DNA from: an uncultured bacterium
GTDB lineage: Bacteria; Patescibacteriota; Minisyncoccia; Phycocordibacterales; Phycocordibacteraceae
Assembly (NCBI GenBank): GCA_903825105.1
Contig: CAIJZI010000006.1
Coordinates: 87,368 to 151,367, forward strand
Length of the DNA stretch: 64,000 nucleotides
Reading direction: 5' to 3'
Below the pieces are notes generated by a model. The model was given only the letters and a program-made list of their open reading frames with translations, had not been told where the DNA came from and did no database searches. A program made the position numbers and the translations under genes. Positions 6,484 through 62,099 of the stretch are shown in pieces (the stretch's first letter is position 1; each line of letters opens with the position of its first letter).

Positions 6484-7823
6484 ATAAAGTTGTCACGCGC
6501 TTCGCCCCCTCACCAACCGGATTTCTCCATGCCGGTAATTATCGCACCGCCGTCTTTTCATATCTTTTTGCAAAGCACACGGGAGGTTCATTTATTCTTC
6601 GCATCGAAGATACGGACACTGCGCGATCAAAAAAAGAATATGAGGATAATATTTATGAGGCACTTGCATGGCTCGATCTTAGATCAGAAAAGACCTACCG
6701 CCAGAGCGAGCACAAGGCGCGTCATCGTGAACTCTTAGAAAAATTGGTGGCAGAAAATCTCGCCTATGTTTCAAAAGAAGAAGTAAAAAATGAAGGCGAT
6801 AGGGAAGAGGTAATTCGATTTAGGAATCCTGGTGGGCTCGTTTCTTTTACCGATTTAATCCGCGGAGAAATAACAACCGACGTTACTGACCTCGGCGATT
6901 TTGTTATCGCAAAATCTTTTGACGAACCAGTATTTCACTTCGCTGTCGTGGTCGATGATTCAGACGAGGGCGTGACGCATGTTGTTCGTGGCGAGGATCA
7001 TATCTCGAATACTCCGCGACAAATTATAATTCAACGGGCACTCCATTTAGAAACGCCGCAATACGCGCACCTCCCACTTATATTAAGTCCTGATAGAACG
7101 AAACTTTCTAAAAGAAATGGTGCGCGAGCCATCACTGACTACCGCGATTTAGGATTTTTGCCCGATGCACTCTTTAATTATCTCTCATTCCTCGGATGGA
7201 ATCCTGGTGACGACAGAGAATATTTAACGAGAGATGAATTAATCGAAGCGTTCGACATTTCTCGCGTACAAAAGGGAAGTGCCATTTTTGACGAAACAAA
7301 ATTGCTCTCGGTTAACCAGCACTGGATGCGCCAGCTTTCTGACGAAGACTTCCTCGCTAAAATGATGGATTTCGTAAACCCATCATTGTCCATAGATTCA
7401 GAAATGCTGGGGAAAGCCGTGTCACTTCTGAAAGAGCGCTCAAAAACATTTGGAGAAGCGCGAGAAATGCTCTCCGGCGAGCTCTCTTGCCTTTTTGAAC
7501 AGCCGTGTCTTGATAAGGAAAGGCTGACCGCGAAGGAGCTCCCAAGCCATCCCAGAATGACCGTTTTAGCCCTAGAAGGCCTCCTGGAGCCCCTAAAATC
7601 CCTTCCAGAAGGAGCTAGCCCCGAGGCAGTTAAGTTGACCATTATGCCCGTAGCCAATGCTGAAGAAGCAAAAGAAAAGGGAGGTAGGGGAGCCGTTCTT
7701 TGGCCACTTCGCTATGCCCTCTCGGGGCAAGAACATTCGCCTGACCCCTTCACCCTTATCTCTATCCTCGGAAAAGAAGAATCGGCTTCGCGTATACGAA
7801 AAGCAATTGCTATACTTGTCTGA
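6480..7823 (+). CDS. gltX: glutamyl-tRNA synthetase
   Basis: SPTGFLHAGN (HIGH-type) and KLSKRNG (KMSKS) class I motifs. Confidence 0.9.
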   Translation: MNKVVTRFAPSPTGFLHAGNYRTAVFSYLFAKHTGGSFILRIEDTDTARSKKEYEDNIYEALAWLDLRSEKTYRQSEHKARHRELLEKLVAENLAYVSKEEVKNEGDREEVIRFRNPGGLVSFTDLIRGEITTDVTDLGDFVIAKSFDEPVFHFAVVVDDSDEGVTHVVRGEDHISNTPRQIIIQRALHLETPQYAHLPLILSPDRTKLSKRNGARAITDYRDLGFLPDALFNYLSFLGWNPGDDREYLTRDELIEAFDISRVQKGSAIFDETKLLSVNQHWMRQLSDEDFLAKMMDFVNPSLSIDSEMLGKAVSLLKERSKTFGEAREMLSGELSCLFEQPCLDKERLTAKELPSHPRMTVLALEGLLEPLKSLPEGASPEAVKLTIMPVANAEEAKEKGGRGAVLWPLRYALSGQEHSPDPFTLISILGKEESASRIRKAIAILV

Positions 7824-16771: not shown

Positions 16772-16773
16772 TA

Positions 16774-16794
16774 TTAGGACATCCGATGTCCTAA
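16774..16794. repeat. palindrome TTAGGACATC-C-GATGTCCTAA between convergent recR and sigma-factor stops (copy 1 of 2)
   Basis: Perfect 10-bp inverted arms; identical core recurs at 18828..18846. Confidence 0.8.
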
Positions 16795-16797
16795 CTT

Positions 16798-18825: not shown

Positions 18826-18848
18826 ATTAGGACATCCGATGTCCTAGT
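18826..18848. repeat. palindrome TATTAGGACATCCGATGTCCTAG (copy 2 of 2)
   Basis: Same core as 16774..16794, again at a convergent gene junction. Confidence 0.8.
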
Positions 18849-20307: not shown

Positions 20308-20625
20308 TTAAGAAATGGAGTCGATTTGAACCTTGAGAACTGGTTGACGATGGCCATTGCGCTTAAAGTAGCGGCTTTTTGGCTTATACTTCACCACTTC
20401 AATTTTCTTTGCTTTTCCGGCGAGAACAACGGTGCCCTTGACCTCCGCGCCCTTAATAGTTGGCGCGCCGATGGTCGTGTCCGAGCCGTTGTCGACGAGG
20501 AGCACCTCGTTAAAGACAACTGTGTCACCCTTCTTCAAATCCCCGGGCAATTTCTCAATCGCAATGGTGTCGCCCTTAGAGACGACATACTGCTTCCCGC
20601 CGGTTTTGATTACAGCCACTTCCAT
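20308..20625 (-). CDS. rplU: 50S ribosomal protein L21
   Basis: MEVAVIKTGGKQYVVSKGD conserved L21 N-terminus. Confidence 0.9.
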   Translation of the reverse strand: MEVAVIKTGGKQYVVSKGDTIAIEKLPGDLKKGDTVVFNEVLLVDNGSDTTIGAPTIKGAEVKGTVVLAGKAKKIEVVKYKPKSRYFKRNGHRQPVLKVQIDSIS

Positions 20626-20712
20626 GTGGCTTTAATCTAGCACGGTTGATTATAAAGCGCAAGGGTGGTAGATTTACCGCGGATTTGTTACTTCAACCAA
20701 GGAGGTTGAGTC

Positions 20713-21282
20713 ATGGGTTTTGTAATTAACGAGCTTAACAAAATGGATAAGCGCGAACTTCTGCATTCGCTGCCAGGATTATTCCTTGCATATTTTGCCG
20801 AATTCGCAATAGCGGTTCACCAAGGAACCGGCCTGCCAATGATCGGGATCTTCAAAGATGGTGTGCTACAGCATGTGGCAATCGAGTGCCCAGACGGAAG
20901 AATGTTTGACGCTCGCGGATTTGTAGAGACATCATCGAAAAGATTCTTGGAAAAATGGCTAACCGACGGTGTCGAGCTGACTCTTACGCCGGTAACTGAA
21001 GCCAAACTCCGCGCCATTCGAGTCGTTGACAAAGACGGTTACAGAGTCGAGCAAGCAAGAGTCAGCGCTGAGATTCTGTTTCCAGAATTACCATGGAAAA
21101 ATGGCGGCGACCTCAAGCGAGTACACGGCTTCCTGGGCAATCTGCAGCATCTCTTCCTTAAATACGGTGTGAAAGTTGAAGTCCCTTTCGAGATCTCAAT
21201 TCAAACAGATGAGGAGATGGGGCGACCGAACATGTACGCAATTCATCCCTCGGTTACGCGCTACAAAATTCTGAGCGAGTAA
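20713..21282 (+). CDS. hypothetical protein
   Basis: 189-aa ORF with upstream AAGGAGG RBS; no recognisable motif. Confidence 0.5.
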   Translation: MGFVINELNKMDKRELLHSLPGLFLAYFAEFAIAVHQGTGLPMIGIFKDGVLQHVAIECPDGRMFDARGFVETSSKRFLEKWLTDGVELTLTPVTEAKLRAIRVVDKDGYRVEQARVSAEILFPELPWKNGGDLKRVHGFLGNLQHLFLKYGVKVEVPFEISIQTDEEMGRPNMYAIHPSVTRYKILSE

Positions 21283-21293
21283 CCCAAATTCGA

Positions 21294-21323
21294 AGGCCGG
21301 CGCTTACGCGTCGGCCTTTTTGT
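21294..21323 (+). terminator. rho-independent terminator (copy A of a duplicated terminator sequence)
   Basis: aggccggcg-ctta-cgcgtcggcct then TTTTTGT; close copy at 22406..22437. Confidence 0.75.
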
Positions 21324-21343
21324 ATAAATTACCTTCTTCTCGT

Positions 21344-21372
21344 GCCGGGACGAATCCTGATGTTCGTCCGGC
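21344..21372. repeat. 11-bp-stem hairpin gccgggacgaa-tcctgatg-ttcgtccggc
   Basis: Perfect inverted repeat in a 450-bp non-coding stretch. Confidence 0.6.
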
Positions 21373-21651
21373 GGCGAAGGAATGATCTTCGTAGGATGTA
21401 GTAATTAGTCGGCAGCCAGCGAATGGCCGCCGATAGGAGCTTCTTTTTGTTGTCGCAGCCCGCGACTTCAAGAACCGGCGAGATCTTCGCCAAATCGAAG
21501 CCTATGTCGGCTTTTGGTTCAGTCACATCGATGCTTTTACCTAACGGTAAAGCGCCCAACACTGCTGCCAACCGAACGATTACTCGCATCTCCCCTTCCT
21601 TTCTATTCCGCTATTACTTTACCAAAAATCAGCATCCTGTCCATAACATTT

Positions 21652-21672
21652 TGCCGACACTAGGTGTCGGCA
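21652..21672. repeat. palindrome TGCCGACAC-TAG-GTGTCGGCA
   Basis: Perfect 9-bp arms. Confidence 0.6.
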
Positions 21673-21708
21673 TCGACAACTTAGGTGTCTCGCCGCTAAA
21701 TAAATTCT

Positions 21709-21731
21709 AGTGAGAGCCTAAAGCTCTCACT
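21709..21731. repeat. hairpin AGTGAGAGC-CTAAA-GCTCTCACT (copy 1), abutting the relE stop
   Basis: 9-bp stem; second copy at 22362..22392. Confidence 0.8.
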
Positions 21732-21740
21732 ACCCGCGTT

Positions 21741-21998
21741 TCATTTATAAGCATCTTTACGATGTCTGATTCTATAAACGATAATCATCTCCCCTTCAAA
21801 TTCAAAAAGCACACGATAGCTACCTAACCGCAGTCGGTATCCAGTAAATGGTGTTTGGACTTTTCTGACATGAAACTTGGGATCAAACGGATCGATGCAG
21901 AAATTCCCATTAAGTAATCCTCGAACTTTTTGTTGCACATCTCTCGGCAGATGTTTGTACTCTCGTTCAGCAGCAGAAGTGAGAGTTACGCGAGCCAT
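21741..21998 (-). CDS. type II toxin, RelE/ParE family
   Basis: 85 aa; YRLRLGSYRVLFEFEGEMIIVYRIRHRKDAY is a canonical RelE/ParE C-terminus; directly downstream of the antitoxin. Confidence 0.85.
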   Translation of the reverse strand: MARVTLTSAAEREYKHLPRDVQQKVRGLLNGNFCIDPFDPKFHVRKVQTPFTGYRLRLGSYRVLFEFEGEMIIVYRIRHRKDAYK

Positions 21999-22000
21999 TT

Positions 22001-22276
22001 TTAATGAACGCTATCTCGTACTTTTTCCCAAGGGATAAACTTCTTGCCTTTATTTTCTTTAATGAGCCGAGCGAGCGTACGCCCAGCTTGTTCGTCTTCC
22101 CAAAGTTCCATAAGCTCGTTATACGCATCGGCGCCAAGCACCACATAGCTCTCGCCGCCCTTTCGGTCAGAGATAATGAGCGGATGCTTCTTGGCTTTCG
22201 CGAGATTGCTCGCGAGCTCGGCTCTAAAACCGCTTATGCCGATTGTTTTAGGCACTTTTGTGAATATTGTATTCAT
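22001..22276 (-). CDS. type II antitoxin, Phd/YefM family
   Basis: 91 aa; Phd/YefM-like N-terminus; 2-nt gap to the toxin. Confidence 0.8.
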   Translation of the reverse strand: MNTIFTKVPKTIGISGFRAELASNLAKAKKHPLIISDRKGGESYVVLGADAYNELMELWEDEQAGRTLARLIKENKGKKFIPWEKVRDSVH

Positions 22277-22282
22277 ATTTCT

Positions 22283-22311
22283 ATTGTACGCGTATGTGTA
22301 CAGATATGCAA
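22283..22311 (-). promoter_or_regulatory. sigma-70-like promoter of the phd-relE operon (TTGCAT-17-TACAAT), leaderless
   Basis: On the minus strand: TTGCAT, 17-nt spacer, TACAAT, then 6 nt to the ATG. Confidence 0.6.
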
Positions 22312-22337
22312 CTACCCTTGTGGATAATTTTACATTT

Positions 22338-22358
22338 TACCGAAGTCAGACTTCGGTA
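22338..22358. repeat. palindrome TACCGAAGTC-T-GACTTCGGTA upstream of the TA promoter (member of the TACCGAA..TTCGGTA family)
   Basis: 10-bp perfect arms; related copies at 40868..40883 and 41126..41141. Confidence 0.8.
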
Positions 22359-22361
22359 TTT

Positions 22362-22392
22362 AGTGAGAGCTTGAGAGCCTAAAGCTCTCACT
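22362..22392. repeat. hairpin AGTGAGAGC(TTGAGAGC)CTAAAGCTCTCACT (copy 2, with internal 8-nt duplication)
   Basis: Copy of 21709..21731. Confidence 0.8.
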
Positions 22393-22405
22393 ACCAAAAA
22401 GTAAA

Positions 22406-22437
22406 AAGCCGACGCTCGCGCGTCGGCCTTTTTGTTT
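22406..22437. terminator. rho-independent terminator (copy B of the duplicated terminator), bidirectional
   Basis: aagccgacgc-tcgc-gcgtcggcc then TTTTTGTTTT; A-run on the other side. Confidence 0.75.
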
Positions 22438-22445
22438 TGGGAAGG

Positions 22446-22688
22446 TCAGACCTTCCCATTTCCCGGCTTCTCTTCGGTGTTGACTACATATCGTGAAGGC
22501 TCCGGGAAACCCCCTCTAAATTCAACCGACAAAATGGCCATTCCCGTTACACTAAGATTGCCGTTGGTTGCTTTGAAGGCGGCCAATGCTTCAGGAAACA
22601 ACTGCGACACAAACTGTCCTTCGAATTGTTTCCGAAAAACAAAAACGCCGTGCCCCAAACCTTCAACTACAAGATGGCCATACTCCAT
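22446..22688 (-). CDS. hypothetical small protein
   Basis: 80-aa ORF; no motif recognised; weak. Confidence 0.3.
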   Translation of the reverse strand: MEYGHLVVEGLGHGVFVFRKQFEGQFVSQLFPEALAAFKATNGNLSVTGMAILSVEFRGGFPEPSRYVVNTEEKPGNGKV

Positions 22689-22696
22689 AAGATACC

Positions 22697-22802
22697 TCCT
22701 GTACCTCTGGCAATACTATATACTATCCTGCGACGGTTTGTCAAGCAGTTCCGGCTCGATGCCGATTTTAGAGTCGGCGATGCGGTACACATCTTTATCT
22801 AT
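22697..22802 (-). pseudogene. displaced, diverged duplicate of the rmuC 3' terminus (about 32 codons)
   Basis: Minus-strand translation QKELGKIDKDVYRIADSKIGIEPELLDKPSQDSI*, against the rmuC C-terminus HKELAKIDKDVYRITEEKVGVEPLLLEKPIIHEE*. Confidence 0.7.
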
Positions 22803-23158
22803 TTTCCCGAGTTCTTTTTGAGATATTCCTTAACTGGATCTGCAACAGTATTTTCGTTTATACCATTCTCTTTACAATATGATGATTTTTGAAGCCAATC
22901 CCACAATTTCTTTTTTCCTCTACTCGAGTTACAACTCCCGCAACATATTGCCAAATCTTCTTTTTCTAAACCAGTTCTTAAACCTTTTTCTGTCCAATAA
23001 AATGGCTTAACTTCCCTCAAGTGTTCAATTGTAGCTGAATGTTTTCTATTACTACTTTGCCAAGGATAAATCATTGGGTTGTTGCAATACACGCACTTCG
23101 TATCCCTATTTCTGATTTCTGCTTCAACATCTTCAGGAATACGAAATTTATTGGACAT
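22799..23158 (-). CDS. HNH endonuclease
   Basis: CVYCNNPM ... HSATIEHL ... CCGSCNSSRG (C-x2-C / H / C-x2-C-N HNH core); start taken at the internal ATG 23158 to avoid overlap. Confidence 0.7.
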   Translation of the reverse strand: MSNKFRIPEDVEAEIRNRDTKCVYCNNPMIYPWQSSNRKHSATIEHLREVKPFYWTEKGLRTGLEKEDLAICCGSCNSSRGKKKLWDWLQKSSYCKENGINENTVADPVKEYLKKNSGK

Positions 23159-23162
23159 AAAA

Positions 23163-23474
23163 TTATTTTTTATCTTCTGGTAATCTGCCTTCCTTCTCCA
23201 TTCGCTCATAAGTGTCTGCCTCGAGACAGCGATTTATTATATTGCTTATATGCCAGTATGAGTGTCCTTCGTAGTCATAATACATCTGCTTAGTTGTATA
23301 GAAATATGATTCGTAACCAAAAGTATCGATGTGATGCGCTAAAGCCAAAAATAATTCATTATCTACATTTTCCTGCACGATATATTCGTGTGGCCATGTC
23401 GTCTCATATGTTTTTGCAAAAATCCAGTTGCAATCTTTTATGAATTTCTTTAATTGTTCAGAGAGTTCGTTCAT
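23163..23474 (-). CDS. hypothetical protein in the HNH cassette, translationally coupled to rmuC
   Basis: 103 aa; the ATG lies 4 nt after the rmuC stop; family not recognised. Confidence 0.5.
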   Translation of the reverse strand: MNELSEQLKKFIKDCNWIFAKTYETTWPHEYIVQENVDNELFLALAHHIDTFGYESYFYTTKQMYYDYEGHSYWHISNIINRCLEADTYERMEKEGRLPEDKK

Positions 23475-23477
23475 TTA

Positions 23478-24521
23478 CTATTCTTCGTGAATAATCGGCT
23501 TTTCAAGCAAGAGAGGCTCAACCCCCACTTTTTCTTCTGTTATTCGATATACATCCTTATCTATTTTGGCGAGTTCTTTATGCCCGGCGTTAAAATGAGA
23601 CACAACCGTTCCAAGTGCGTTCCCTAATTTCAGATAAAAAGTATTGGTTGTTTCAATATGTTTAACAAGCTCTCCCACGCGCTTCTGAATTTCTTCGGCA
23701 CGCTCTTCGATCTTCATTGCGTTCAACCCAAGCAGAACGGTCTGAAGGTAGGCGAGGAATGAAGTTGGCGAAACGATGATCACTTTATATTTAGACGCAG
23801 CGCGTTGGAGCAGATTATCTTCTTCGGACGCGCCAACCTGATTCGTCAGCAGATCATAATAAATCCCTTCAGACGGGATAAACATAAAAGCGAAGTCCAT
23901 CGTCCCCTCTTCAGGGCGAATGTATTTCGCCGTTTCGGTGATGCGCATCTTAAGGTCATTCACAAAGGCTTTTTCAAATGCGGGCTTCTCGCTCTCGTCG
24001 GCGTGCACTAAGCGATTATAATTTTCAAGCGAAAACTTAGAATCAATCGGTACTATCTTATTATTTACAAAAACGACCGCGTCTACTATCTCGCCGTTCT
24101 TGAATGGGTATTGGATCTGATAACCGTCTGGAGGCAGAACATTCTTGAGTGTTGTTTCCAAATAATATTCACCGAGAATACCTCGTTGTTTTGGATTCTT
24201 CAGAATGTCTTGTAGACCCTTCAGTTGTTCAGCGAAGCCTTGTGTCTGCCGACCAATCTCTTTGACCGAAGTGACCTCTTGAGTAATCTCTTTAATCAGG
24301 CGATTCGATTCTGAAAATTGGCGATGCGTTGTCTCTTGCATCGTTCGCGACGACTCGGCGACGCGTGCGTCGAGCGTCCGAGTGAGCTCCTGCATCTGCT
24401 GTTGAAGCAAAAGAATTCCAGCATTATCTTCTTTTCCCTCTTTCGACAAATCGCGTTTTTGTAACAAAAAATACATAAGAACGACAACGGCGATAGCGAG
24501 AAGTATGACGGCAATATTCAT
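23478..24521 (-). CDS. rmuC: DNA recombination protein RmuC
   Basis: N-terminal TM, long coiled coil, C-terminal RmuC block (FAFMFIPSEGIYYDLL). Confidence 0.8.
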   Translation of the reverse strand: MNIAVILLAIAVVVLMYFLLQKRDLSKEGKEDNAGILLLQQQMQELTRTLDARVAESSRTMQETTHRQFSESNRLIKEITQEVTSVKEIGRQTQGFAEQLKGLQDILKNPKQRGILGEYYLETTLKNVLPPDGYQIQYPFKNGEIVDAVVFVNNKIVPIDSKFSLENYNRLVHADESEKPAFEKAFVNDLKMRITETAKYIRPEEGTMDFAFMFIPSEGIYYDLLTNQVGASEEDNLLQRAASKYKVIIVSPTSFLAYLQTVLLGLNAMKIEERAEEIQKRVGELVKHIETTNTFYLKLGNALGTVVSHFNAGHKELAKIDKDVYRITEEKVGVEPLLLEKPIIHEE

Positions 24522-42853: not shown

Positions 42854-43552
42854 CTATAGCAAATGCGACGGAATGACGAGTGAGAGATGTTCGAGAATCA
42901 TCTTTACCGGCGCGCTACGGTCGTAGAGATATGTGCGTAAAACAGCAATGTCAGAAAGAAGCGCTGCGGCTTCGCCGCCGCGCTTCTTGAATTTTTCATA
43001 CGCTACCATCTCAACACCATTTAAAATCGCGATCGCGTCATCGCGATGCTCGCGCCGTTCTTCTTCGTCATCACCACTCGCGAGCTTTTTAATCAGTGCA
43101 CTTCTTTTTTCTTTATTGGCTTTCAAAAATTCTTTGGAGCTTTCTGAAATGATGGATTTCGTAAACCCATCATTTGACTCTTTTACATTATTCAACACTT
43201 GCACGCGCGAACGCAAAGTTGGGAGAAGGCTACCAAGCGACGGCAATACCAGAAAAATATAAGTGTTTGGAGGTGGCTCTTCAAAAAGTTTTAAAAGCGC
43301 GTTTTGTGCTTCGTGATAAGCGCGACTCGCCGTGATGATGAGAGCTTTAGACTCTCCACTGAAGGGCGCGCTCGCCGCGATCTCGCAGACCTTCCGCGCA
43401 TCATCAACAGAAAAGAGTCCGTAGCGTAAAACAACAAGATCAGGATTGCTCATTTCTGCTTTCATCTTCAATTCCTTCTCCACCCACGCTCCCGCCACCT
43501 TAATTCCCTCCTCTGCCTCTGCTTCAATAACAAATGCGTGATGTAGTGTCAT
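42854..43552 (-). CDS. holB: DNA polymerase III delta' (clamp-loader) subunit-like
   Basis: KLFEEPP and LPTLRSR motifs of clamp-loader AAA+ subunits; no intact Walker A. Confidence 0.6.
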   Translation of the reverse strand: MTLHHAFVIEAEAEEGIKVAGAWVEKELKMKAEMSNPDLVVLRYGLFSVDDARKVCEIAASAPFSGESKALIITASRAYHEAQNALLKLFEEPPPNTYIFLVLPSLGSLLPTLRSRVQVLNNVKESNDGFTKSIISESSKEFLKANKEKRSALIKKLASGDDEEERREHRDDAIAILNGVEMVAYEKFKKRGGEAAALLSDIAVLRTYLYDRSAPVKMILEHLSLVIPSHLL

Positions 43553-55147: not shown

Positions 55148-55170
55148 ATGTGATGGATTTCGTAAACCCA

Positions 55171-55875
55171 TCATCGGGCTAAGAAAATTCTGCGATCTTC
55201 GGGAGAGAAATGTTCAATCGCGTAGCGAAGCGTCGTGCGCGGCATTTGTGCTTTATGTTTGTTTATAAAATTTGAGAGCTTACTTATCGAGCAACGCTTT
55301 CCCACCTCGCGCAGCATCCAGCCAACGGCTTTATGGATTAAGTCGTGATCGTCGGCGAGGAGTATCTCAGCGAGAGCGAGCGTGTCCTCGGCTTCGCCAT
55401 TTTTAATAAAAGCAAAGGTCGCGACGATAGCGATACGCCGTTCCCAAAGATTTTTTGACTTCGCGAGTTTGTATAAAATCTTTCTATCTCTCTTCAATAA
55501 ATAATCGCCGAGAATATACGGTGCGGATTGATCTACCAAATCCCAGTTGTTGATATATTTCGTATGCGCGAGATAAAACTTAGTTAGTCTCTCTTTTGTT
55601 TTTTCGTCCGCGTTTTTATACTGCTCAACAAGAATCAGAAGCGCCGTAAAACGACACTCGTGAATCTTGTTTTTGAGTAGTTTTTCGATTTCTTTAAGCT
55701 GTAAAACTTTGTACTCCTTCGCGACTTTTCTCTGTTCAGGCACCGTCACACCAACAAAGACATCGCCATAGCCATACTGCCCTTTACCGGTTTTAAAGTA
55801 CCAAGCACAGGCCTTCGCCTTCTTCGCGCTCCCTAATTTCTTCAATTTTTTCTCAATGTCTGTAGCCGTTTGCAT
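55171..55875 (-). CDS. DNA alkylation repair protein (AlkD/AlkC HEAT-like repeat family)
   Basis: HEAT-like repeats; C-terminal block ALAEILLADDHDLIHKAVGWMLREVGKR; start taken at MQTATD. Confidence 0.7.
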   Translation of the reverse strand: MQTATDIEKKLKKLGSAKKAKACAWYFKTGKGQYGYGDVFVGVTVPEQRKVAKEYKVLQLKEIEKLLKNKIHECRFTALLILVEQYKNADEKTKERLTKFYLAHTKYINNWDLVDQSAPYILGDYLLKRDRKILYKLAKSKNLWERRIAIVATFAFIKNGEAEDTLALAEILLADDHDLIHKAVGWMLREVGKRCSISKLSNFINKHKAQMPRTTLRYAIEHFSPEDRRIFLAR

Positions 55876-61850: not shown

Positions 61851-62099
61851 GTTGAATTATCGTTATGGATAAATCCGGGTCGGCGGGTAGCACAAAACCC
61901 GCCACCAGGAGCCCTTGCGGGCCTATAGGAGTTTCCCCCTATAACGCATCGAACGCCCTGATGACGGGTTTTCTAGGTTCGATGCGATTTGCGACCATGC
62001 CATTGACCGAAGTCACTGGTTTAGGTCGGTACTAGCCAAAGCTAGTACCTTAAAGATATCTCACTTTAGGGGTTCTGCGAAGACCTTGCTTGAAGACAA

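Follow-up and report, generated by a model that had tools for sequence, protein, structure and literature searches.

The 64-kb stretch of DNA analysed here (hereafter the window, to which all coordinates refer) comes from an uncultured bacterium of the Patescibacteriota. On its minus strand it carries a phd-relE toxin-antitoxin (TA) pair nested between two copies of a hairpin, H1 and H2, and, outside these, between two copies of a terminator, T1 and T2. Such a bracket raises the question of whether the repeats came with the gene pair or gathered around a pair that was already in place. A sequence-only reading of the locus had offered both answers, namely that the repeated terminator was the means by which the cassette was inserted or duplicated, or that elements resembling repetitive extragenic palindromes (REPs) accumulate here. 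All the elements that it listed were recovered at their positions, and shuffles and a binomial test placed the repeats far beyond chance. Comparison loci from genomes and metagenomes (designated by L-numbers, such as L002 or L023) pointed to the second answer. On balance, phd-relE was probably a resident, and the bracket would most likely come from REP-like hairpins that colonised the variable spacer in which it lies, not from the arrival of the toxin genes.

The pair was found at a fixed address in relatives. The order rmuC, phd-relE, rplU was present in L023, L051/52 (Kaiserbacteria), L055, L056, L057 and L060, and L058 and L059 likewise showed rmuC followed by phd-relE up to the end of the contig. 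Altogether, about eight related Patescibacteria loci (Kaiserbacteria/Paceibacteria-like) bore the pair at the address between rmuC and rplU; L051/52 and L055-L060 had been retrieved through contigs encoding Phd homologues and L023 through the hairpin search. Neither H (at five mismatches or fewer) nor the 16-nt core of T was detected in L051-L061. Homology to the relatives spanned from the ATCCACA at 22326 to the relE stop codon at 21741 and stopped there, and the two genes lying outside the hairpins in the window, gene80 and gene189, were not present in the relatives examined. In L057 and L058, relE was joined directly to a displaced rmuC 3′ end via a TACAAA-type overlap, indicating that H arrived after the pair. 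In L023, too, the orthologous pair was closed by an H, which lay precisely where it meets the displaced rmuC end. Among the contigs bearing gene189, relE or gene80 we found no variant lacking the TA pair; they presented either the same layout or a break at the hairpins. Since the relatives share the address without H or T, phd-relE would be resident and its flanks new. The pair thus appears to be the old part of the locus, and gene80, gene189, a gene-poor stretch of 385 bp between T1 and H1 (21324-21707) and the hairpins H, T, Q and G its lineage-specific surroundings. With the pair resident in relatives that lack H and T, an insertion or duplication through the repeated terminator was not borne out, although T1 and T2 are real duplicates. 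The sequence-only reading would have been contradicted by hairpins that follow many unrelated genes and by relatives with the same layout but without the pair. H did adjoin many unrelated genes elsewhere, but the relatives showed the pair without the hairpins and not the reverse.

The organisation of the pair was conserved as well. The toxin, of 85 aa, matched Pfam ParE_toxin (PF05016) with 26.9 bits (cut-off 23), and its best structure match was RelE3 (3bpq, E 4.7e-7), with Rv2866 also matched (E 0.017), which places it in the RelE/ParE fold family. Its orthologues at the same locus in relatives were 46-75% identical. The antitoxin gave weak matches to PF02604 (22.5 bits, under the 29.8-bit cut-off) and to YefM (2a6q, E 0.06). 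It had 75 homologues at 63-92% identity, about half of them with a precomputed PF02604 assignment and some named Phd/YefM by their source; judged from these matches, the antitoxin itself is a weak Phd/YefM match and its family clearly Phd/YefM. The antitoxin gene comes first and the toxin gene follows after a 2-nt gap. In the promoter, the -35 and -10 hexamers were separated by 17 nt and the ATG at 22276 came 6 nt past the -10 hexamer. The alignment of six lineages (A2) kept TTGCA-17-TACAAT, the ATG 6-7 nt after the -10 and an operator palindrome, TGTACAC-n4-GYGTACA, that overlaps the -10. The leaderless promoter recognised by the sequence-only reading is accordingly a layout kept in five other lineages (L023, L051, L055, L056 and L057), and the whole has the organisation expected of a bicistronic TA operon with a putative autoregulatory operator. 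In L051, L059 and L023 the relE stop codon was followed by (C)AACGC(G/C)GG(C/T)TACAAAGAGCTCGG. On this basis, the AACGCGGGT that separates the relE stop codon from H1 in the window may be a remnant of a displaced rmuC end, 9 nt being too short for statistics. A search of 21250-21800 with a profile of rmuC 3′ ends (nhmmer) revealed no rmuC remnant after H1.

The hairpin H belonged to a dispersed family. An exact 20-mer of H was found in five species-representative genomes and in 40 contigs from metagenomes, mostly of candidate-phyla bacteria and many of them with groundwater-project names, and did not occur in IMG/VR. In 206 kb of non-redundant loci we counted 53 copies, mostly intergenic and within ~30 nt of a gene end. 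Some formed head-to-head doublets (L031, L037 and L038), and arm duplications like that of H2 were also present in L009 and L036. In L008, L011, L022, L030, L046, L050 and L034, H copies were inverted around a gene of ~220 codons for a Y1 transposase. The transposase gene also held a hairpin of its own within the coding sequence (CDS; peptide VRALGSH) at L008 6860, L011 1029, L022 2410, L030 6697, L046 3859 and L050 3798, ~170-225 nt beyond the flanking copy on the upstream side; this hairpin may serve autoregulation or represent an internal end. An H-F-H motif and two Tyr residues were invariant in the Y1 proteins (alignment A3), and the match to PF01797 reached 35 bits (cut-off 23). All ten proteins compared matched NCBIfam NF047646, the REP-associated tyrosine transposase (RAYT), with a best E of 8.6e-16; the one bit score given, 31, is under the 80-bit equivalog cut-off. 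The best solved structure was E. coli TnpA-REP (4er8, E 0.045). This RAYT-like family comprised 3598 homologous clusters in Patescibacteria lineages, several of them named RayT by JGI. These findings support that H is a REP-like element, that is, a dispersed palindrome family tied to RAYT-like Y1 transposases, with the Y1 gene lying between inverted copies of the same repeat in other genomes and not in the window.

The neighbours of H were of particular kinds. H lay 8 nt past the yafQ stop codon in L047 and 50 nt past parE in L023, and genes beside solitary copies elsewhere encoded a YafQ toxin, a helix-turn-helix antitoxin-like protein, an MNT nucleotidyltransferase, and GIY-YIG and HNH endonucleases. 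H tended to favour accessory, selfish-gene neighbourhoods. A 25-mer of H also lay within reverse transcriptase genes of the diversity-generating retroelement type (L007 3386, L013 3706, L028 13904, L035 911 and L041 7390), where it is read in frame as the peptide SESLKLSL; these genes encode IGNLTSQ and YADD motifs, and they have an Avd-like neighbour and a template-repeat-like sequence nearby. Conservation of H within these genes was discounted, the loci having been picked by an exact 20-mer search and being a biased sample. The exact 20-mer was further present at 534-553 of L044, beside a Campylobacter-type major outer membrane porin gene. That contig is probably not from a candidate-phyla bacterium, and its H may be a chance match or reflect a wider spread.

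Within the window, H1 (as a repeat, 21708-21732) and H2 (22361-22393) had an exact 24-mer, TGAGAGCCTAAAGCTCTCACTACC, in common (repeat family D2). They were direct repeats down to a private flank, T...ACC, so that one of them was probably copied from the other locally. H1 starts 7 nt past the relE stop codon and was flagged as terminator-like on the minus strand (11 pairs and an AU-rich tail, GAATTTATTT), being borderline as an intrinsic terminator; it folded at -16.6 kcal/mol (z = -4.5). A 23-mer of H had no match in 100 shuffles, and the window held no further genuine copy. A putative third copy at 43338, with 4 mismatches, lay within a conserved holB motif ('G..K.LII') and is probably due to chance. 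T1 and T2 were 82% identical across 38 nt (family D1; shuffle expectation 0.01), including 16 identical nt, GCGTCGGCCTTTTTGT. The motif had a single independent occurrence in all IMG/VR, which argues that the two are related and not convergent. Their 5′ flanks and loops differed, and direct (82%) and inverted (79%) alignments were equally good. T1 folded at -22.4 kcal/mol on the plus strand and more weakly, without a U-tail, on the minus strand; T2 formed 13 pairs on the minus strand, had a T-tract on both strands and folded at -22.1 kcal/mol. By sequence and folding, T1 (plus strand) and T2 (both strands) have the GC-rich stem-loop and U-tract of intrinsic terminators. The palindrome at 21652 proved to be a third, T-like copy: its arms GCCGACAC/GTGTCGGC differed from the T2 stem GCCGACGC/GCGTCGGC by one compensatory pair, and hairpins of the form GCCGAC..GTCGGC were present in the window only at 21653 and 22408 (0.06 expected). 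Three T-type hairpins therefore lie within 1.15 kb.

Two other hairpins, Q and G, completed the cluster. A homologous copy of Q was found in L012, after a g136 homologue, and a copy of G in L025, on a contig that also bears H. Q, H2, T2 and G adjoin one another within 120 nt, and each folds independently. Overall, 7 of the 41 hairpins with at least nine paired bases in the window fell within 21293-22459, which represents 1.8% of its length (binomial P = 9e-6). The features are collected in the table below.

Features of the rmuC-rplU spacer and its surroundings in the window, in order of position
Feature	Position	Strand	Description	Basis
gene189	20713..21282	+	Lineage-specific orphan, convergent with the minus-strand units	Codon score, no homologue other than itself
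T1	21286..21323	+	GC-rich stem-loop (21293-21320) and TTTTTGT, predicted intrinsic terminator for gene189, direct-repeat partner of T2	Fold, repeat search
ORF86	21329..21589	-	Doubtful 86-aa open reading frame (ORF) in the 385-bp stretch; takes in the bulged hairpin 21344-21371	No real homologue
T-like palindrome	21652..21672		TGCCGACAC-TAG-GTGTCGGCA, third T-family hairpin, without U-tail, 35 nt from H1	Hairpin search
H1	21708..21734		REP-like hairpin TAGTGAGAGC-CTAAA-GCTCTCACTA followed by CC	45 other loci with the family
rmuC remnant	21732..21740	-	AACGCGGGT, putative 9-nt remnant of a displaced rmuC 3′ end (codons N-A-G), between the relE stop codon and H1	relE junctions in L051, L059 and L023
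relE	21741..21998	-	RelE/ParE-superfamily toxin gene, 85 aa	PF05016, structure match, orthologues
phd	22001..22276	-	Phd/YefM-type antitoxin gene, 91 aa	Weak PF02604, homologues
TA promoter/operator	22277..22326	-	Predicted -35 TTGCAT (22311-22306), -10 TACAAT (22288-22283), palindrome TGTACAC-ATAC-GCGTACA	Alignment A2
Q	22339..22357		Hairpin ACCGAAGT-CAG-ACTTCGGT, flank AAAATGTAAAATT on the minus strand	Hairpin search, fold
H2	22361..22395		Second H copy; 8-nt left-arm duplication giving a 12-bp outer stem	-18.2 kcal/mol
T2	22398..22435		Predicted bidirectional intrinsic terminator (stem-loop 22403-22432), closing gene80 on the minus strand	Terminator scan, fold
G	22439..22457		Hairpin GGGAAGGTC-A-GACCTTCCC; overlaps with the stop codon of gene80	Hairpin search, fold
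gene80	22446..22688	-	Lineage-specific orphan	Promoter, Shine-Dalgarno sequence, codon score
Displaced rmuC 3′ end	22708..22823	-	Residues ~312-345 and stop codon; the working rmuC end in strain L002	tblastn; nhmmer E 4e-32
g103 + g136	22799..23474	-	Module of g103 and HNH-like g136 (136 aa), 35% GC, an insertion in the rmuC 3′ end that brought a replacement end along	Not in L002

Most of what the sequence-only reading had described at this level stood: the H hairpins on both sides of the pair, the second with its 8-nt duplication, the two T copies with TTTTTGT, the 21652 palindrome and the doubtful 86-aa ORF. Its view that REP-like elements accumulate here gained ground from the dispersal of H with RAYT-like genes, the copies of Q and G elsewhere and the other palindromes in the spacers of relatives. 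The hairpin at 21344, given as an 11-bp stem, turned out to have 10 pairs and a bulge. The hairpin-rich left stretch had no convincing gene, as it had said, but measured 385 bp and not 450. It had also proposed that this stretch might encode an RNA, a reading taken up below.

Other palindromes were repeated in the window away from the locus. Hairpin X (ATATTAGGACATCCGATGTCCTA), of 23-26 nt, formed a direct repeat at 16773-16795 and 18826-18848. Its copies framed a lineage-specific block of ~2 kb with genes for an ECF sigma factor, a PAS-like protein and a peptidoglycan-binding protein and a terminator, located between recR and a DEAD-box helicase gene. In L051 and L055 these two genes adjoin each other, with 0-170 nt between them. 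The block is a second insert in the window between identical hairpins. Palindrome Y (AATGATGGATTTCGTAAACCCATCATT), of 27 nt, had three copies, at 7361-7387, 43147-43175 and 55151-55173. Two of them were in frame in essential genes (the gltX interdomain linker, and holB past the SRC-like motif, peptide SNDGFTKSII) and the third was intergenic.

In the scenario that we favour, an old, autoregulated and leaderless phd-relE would, in the Kaiserbacteria/Paceibacteria-like clade to which the window belongs, have entered at the rmuC 3′ end, leaving a displaced rmuC end behind. In the lineage of the window, the spacer would have grown by one orphan gene on each side, gene80 upstream and gene189 downstream of the pair, and the joints would subsequently have been colonised by short palindromic repeats. 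The minus strand may be read as three consecutive units with hairpins at their ends. In the first, gene80 precedes G, T2, H2 and Q; in the second, phd-relE precedes H1 and the T-like palindrome; and in the third, the doubtful ORF86 precedes T1, which would mainly serve the convergent gene189. The nested bracket would largely be formed by the periodic 3′-end elements of neighbouring units, sharpened by local copying. We infer that H, a near-perfect palindrome of 25-27 nt, was seeded in this genome in trans by a RAYT-type Y1 HUH transposase, which would cut and rejoin hairpin DNA in its single-stranded form. T1, T2 and the 21652 palindrome would be a second hairpin family, amplified locally, of which two members have U-tracts. 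As to function, T2 and H2 could halt read-through from gene80 before the TA promoter, H1 could be a protective or terminating 3′ stem-loop of the TA mRNA, and T1 and T2 would be working terminators, T1 being shared with the convergent gene189 as its terminator. Homologous recombination, anchored in rplU and the 3′ end of rmuC, would carry the whole block from one genome to another.

Several observations weigh against this scenario. Only two H copies, both of them intergenic, were present in 64 kb and both stand beside one operon, which with ~60 intergenic regions would happen by chance in ~3% of cases; something local would tie the H copies to the TA pair, be it copying, selection or co-mobilisation. 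No RAYT-like or Y1 gene was found in the window by tblastn. Classical REPs are species-specific; H was near-identical across candidate-phyla lineages, its 20-mer being found in contigs labelled Saccharibacteria, Nomurabacteria, unclassified bacterium and others. Some H copies were in frame inside genes, and the family is not strictly extragenic. The orientation of the H loop flipped between L012 and L023, which have the same H flanks, so arguments from direct versus inverted orientation rest on few bases. Finally, the order of the elements is mirrored (T..H, pair, H..T), which a purely periodic 3′-end model does not predict.

A combination of ordinary, unrelated terminators with chance palindromes is very improbable: T1 and T2 do have the appearance of standard intrinsic terminators, but the shuffle expectations of 0 to 0.06 per repeat, the clustering of the hairpins (P = 9e-6) and the presence of H in 45 external loci all speak otherwise. 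A more serious rival, which we nevertheless consider unlikely, holds that H1-phd-relE-H2 is a mobilisable cassette with the H copies as its ends, like the hairpins of IS200/IS605 derivatives or recombination sites. A Y1 transposase, or H-H recombination, would excise the pair and reinsert it, preferably beside rmuC. This would account for H1 and H2 being direct repeats together with their private flank, for the sole H copies in 64 kb standing tight against the conserved TA block (22326-21741), and for the H at the end of the L023 pair; the L056 pair between direct repeats of a palindromic element, M, and the H after the yafQ toxin gene in L047 agree with it too. Moreover, contig L005, of 732 bp, spans exactly from H2 to H1. 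Such a short contig is, however, equally explained by assembly breaking at repeats. In the sample from which it comes (ERZ18625277), another contig, L065, stops at the gene80 stop codon, and breaks at the hairpin cluster fit an H that is multi-copy, or a locus that is polymorphic, in that community. Eight hairpin-free loci carry the pair, and L051, L055, L056 and L057 have the same pair boundaries at the same site without H. The hairpins at the transposase loci are inverted, as in a REPtron, and not direct as in IS200/IS605, and the contigs with gene80 or gene189 included no variant without the pair.

The outer repeats could instead mark the event. If a single bidirectional terminator once separated the convergent gene80 and gene189, the T1-T2 segment could have entered it, by recombination at the terminator or its duplication, leaving T as a direct repeat. 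T1 and T2 are indeed genuine duplicates with 16 identical nt and the terminators of two convergent flanking orphan genes, and there are parallels in L051, where two copies of the terminator GGCGGACTCCGGTCCG(C/T)CTTGT surround a lineage-specific two-gene block just upstream of rplU, and in the 2-kb insert framed by hairpin X. Yet every relative examined has the pair in the rmuC-rplU gap, so that a loss and a regain would be needed; the third T-like hairpin lies inside the supposed insert, which fits local amplification better; and the 5′ flanks and loops of T1 and T2 differ, direct and inverted alignments being equally good. We regard this origin as quite improbable. The same low probability attaches to a last alternative, in which the 385-bp stretch is the functional core, encoding a small or cis-regulatory RNA or a real ORF86 protein, and the hairpins are its own elements. 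The stretch folds strongly (minus strand, z = -4.1; plus strand, z = -6.4) and ends at T1. At 21643-21616 it has a promoter-like site, TGGACA-16-TAAAGT, whose -10 is extended; a tract rich in purines that resembles a Shine-Dalgarno sequence precedes the start codon of ORF86, and the spacer of relatives holds a different, apparently structured segment, including the ribosomal RNA match of L056 described below. The folding signal, however, came mostly from discrete hairpins, and no homologous DNA was found in relatives, phages or plasmids. Rfam searches, of the whole window at gathering thresholds and of 21200-22500 at E up to 1, returned nothing relevant beyond weak noise. An exhaustive HMMER search of 1.84 billion representatives with ORF86 retrieved only itself and one eukaryotic NLR match, which was leucine-rich-repeat-like and was judged spurious. 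The ORF86 codon score was no better than that of ORF95 on the opposite strand, and the other copies of the stretch were all 100% identical, so that neither covariation nor dN/dS is informative.

The flanking genes were orphans. For gene189, no homologue other than itself was found among 5.8 billion proteins, and none of gene189, gene80 and ORF86 had a Pfam, NCBIfam or PADLOC match. Codon scores were 0.19 bits per codon for gene189, 0.21 for gene80 and -0.05 for ORF86 (real genes, 0.27 +/- 0.10); by codon usage, gene189 and gene80 look coding and ORF86 is marginal. In addition to a Shine-Dalgarno sequence, gene80 had a strong promoter, TTGACA-18-TATAGT, at 22744-22715. Single-sequence AlphaFold models of orphan genes were unusable (predicted local distance difference test scores of 38 and 48). 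A blastn comparison of 20700-22700 with phage and plasmid sequences gave no match. Unrelated to the locus, a LOOT RNA match (Rfam RF03000, 78.8 bits) was found on the minus strand at 61910-62027.

Resuming the history in which the pair is resident and its spacer variable, the rmuC side of the locus showed repeated remodelling. Fragments of the rmuC 3′ end were found behind inserted modules in the window, L023, L057 and L058 (one each) and in L051 and L056 (two each). In the window, rmuC lies at 23478-24521, and the stop codon of g136 is built from out-of-frame rmuC codons. In L012, rmuC is followed by a related g103/g136-type module, at the end of which stand Q and H hairpins; the module of the window may represent a free-standing homing-endonuclease cassette. 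At the nucleotide level, synonymous sites included, the last ~110 nt of rmuC were kept across lineages whose RmuC proteins were only 42-81% identical, which suggests that this end travels with the downstream modules. A recent exchange could also be delimited. Positions 20417-22805 of the window and 11-2520 of L002 showed 0 substitutions over 2389 bp, whereas the adjoining 3′ half of rplU had 25 substitutions in 119 nt (21%) and divergence resumed beyond 22806, in rmuC. The whole feature has therefore moved recently between lineages as one recombination tract, apparently anchored in rplU and the rmuC end.

Relatives had palindromes of their own in this spacer. The palindromic element M (CATATCAAATTAAACCCACGGTCGTGGTATTGTTTTGATATG), of ~43 nt, was present in L056 at 3436, 3884 and 4550 and in L023 at 729, where the spacer holds M plus H. 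Two of the three L056 copies flank the TA pair, and each of the M copies flanking or following the pair (these two and that of L023) was then followed by a different hairpin. Hairpins of the ACATAGGAC type were found in the spacers of L051 and L056. In addition, L056 3702-3777, upstream of rplU, matched positions 2213-2282 of the archaeal large-subunit rRNA model (E 8e-4), which we take to be the L1-stalk region. A sequence similar to it was found at ~1000-1085 of L023, and the window has no such segment. The segment may be a leader that mimics rRNA, or a piece of rRNA. The Rfam search of the spacers of relatives returned only tRNAs and one weak large-subunit rRNA match.

These stacked ends open a further possibility, which we hold to be doubtful, that the rmuC-rplU spacer is a gene-capture platform. 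Modules would enter a ~25-nt zone in the last 110 nt of rmuC, bringing replacement ends, with palindromes as joints. Such a platform would carry the TA pair, the HNH-nuclease pair and orphan genes, and older ends and modules may be pushed downstream. The joints (H, M and the ACATAGGAC-type hairpin) may be used by a single-strand HUH enzyme or by the recombination machinery. If this were true, the spacer would work like an integron that lacks an integrase, with H1 and H2 as cassette boundaries and not passive REPs. The junctions, however, scattered over ~25 nt, some of them had no hairpin, and H was not generally beside duplicated gene ends. Specifically, a self-blast of the H flanks in all loci revealed a hairpin beside a duplicated gene end at the rmuC locus only, apart from unrelated repeats in L027 and L036, which makes the platform less probable.

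The locus resembles several known systems. REP or REPIN elements with a RAYT ('REPtrons'), such as REP/BIME with TnpA-REP in E. coli and the REPINs of Pseudomonas fluorescens, have been described (PMC3337134, PMC3116915, PMC6006769). H resembles them in being a palindrome of ~25 nt mostly at gene 3′ ends, singly and as head-to-head doublets, in having a Y1 HUH transposase gene between inverted copies, in sharing a spacer with different hairpin types, as in BIMEs, and in its plausible roles in termination and mRNA 3′ protection; by comparison with the published systems (PMC3337134, PMC6006769), these features appear to be hallmarks of a REP/RAYT system. Unlike them, H is near-identical across several candidate-phyla lineages and not species-specific, its palindrome is perfect and not imperfect, and it has no general GTAG-type 5′ head. 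Its copies look sparse, with 2 in 64 kb here and mostly a single one per contig elsewhere, one copy is kept inside the transposase CDS with others in frame in other genes, and the H-linked transposases, of ~220 aa, have a C-terminal extension and fall under the NCBIfam RAYT cut-off. The pair itself is like type II TA systems (RelE/ParE with Phd/YefM): antitoxin first, a 2-nt gap, an 85-aa RelE-fold toxin, an operator palindrome over the promoter and the behaviour of a selfish module, the toxin (46-75% identity) varying far more than the antitoxin (82-92%). It differs in occupying one address, rmuC to rplU, clade-wide instead of being scattered, in an mRNA that by promoter layout would be leaderless and in a 3′ end that, in this lineage, would come from a REP-like hairpin.

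As with the orphan tips of Rhs/CdiA and the att duplications of integrative islands, an incoming module brings a replacement rmuC 3′ end and older ends stay downstream as decaying direct repeats. However, no integrase or toxin tip is involved, the modules are of 0.5-1 kb, the junctions spread over ~25 nt without a single core and the exchange is apparently plain homologous recombination. Small palindromes in frame in genes (Y in gltX and holB, H in reverse transcriptase and transposase genes) recall the Rickettsia palindromic elements, and a reliance on single-strand hairpin processing is shared with palindrome-associated transposable elements (PATEs) derived from IS200/IS605. The elements here are nonetheless of 27 nt and not 100-150 nt as in the former, and H1 and H2 do not delimit a unit that comes and goes in its entirety. 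An IS200/IS605-type element or PATE with cargo was rejected: H1 and H2 are direct, but the pair occurs without hairpins in relatives and the hairpins of the transposase genes are inverted. Integron attC sites have R''/R' cores (RYYYAAC...GTTRRRY), measure 57-141 nt and have an IntI integrase nearby. An integron cassette was likewise rejected, H being 25-33 nt long and without GTTRRRY/RYYYAAC cores, and H as a CRISPR repeat, attC or Xer/dif site was ruled out by spacing, length and absent core motifs. No recombinase domain was found in the nine ORFs of 20713-23474 scanned with Pfam, no window-wide search for IntI having been made.

The TA pair, the terminators and the REP-like hairpins are of known kinds. 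New are, in candidate-phyla bacteria, the hairpin family H and the large family of RAYT-like partners that goes with it, and the fixed, rmuC-linked address of the pair with its stacking of rmuC ends; literature searches on RAYT/REP in Patescibacteria, and on rmuC as a site of integration, brought up nothing pertinent. The genomes of Patescibacteria are very small, and mobile DNA is usually said to be scarce in them. At this locus, a conserved chromosomal TA address became a sink for several palindromic repeat families. For annotation, this is a caution that repeats around a gene pair do not make the pair the mobile part. If targeted capture were true, the stacked rmuC ends would represent a new kind of cassette platform. 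The locus provides a tractable case of REP-type remodelling, in which hairpins would supply 3′ ends for selfish operons, break assemblies and travel in recombination tracts from lineage to lineage.

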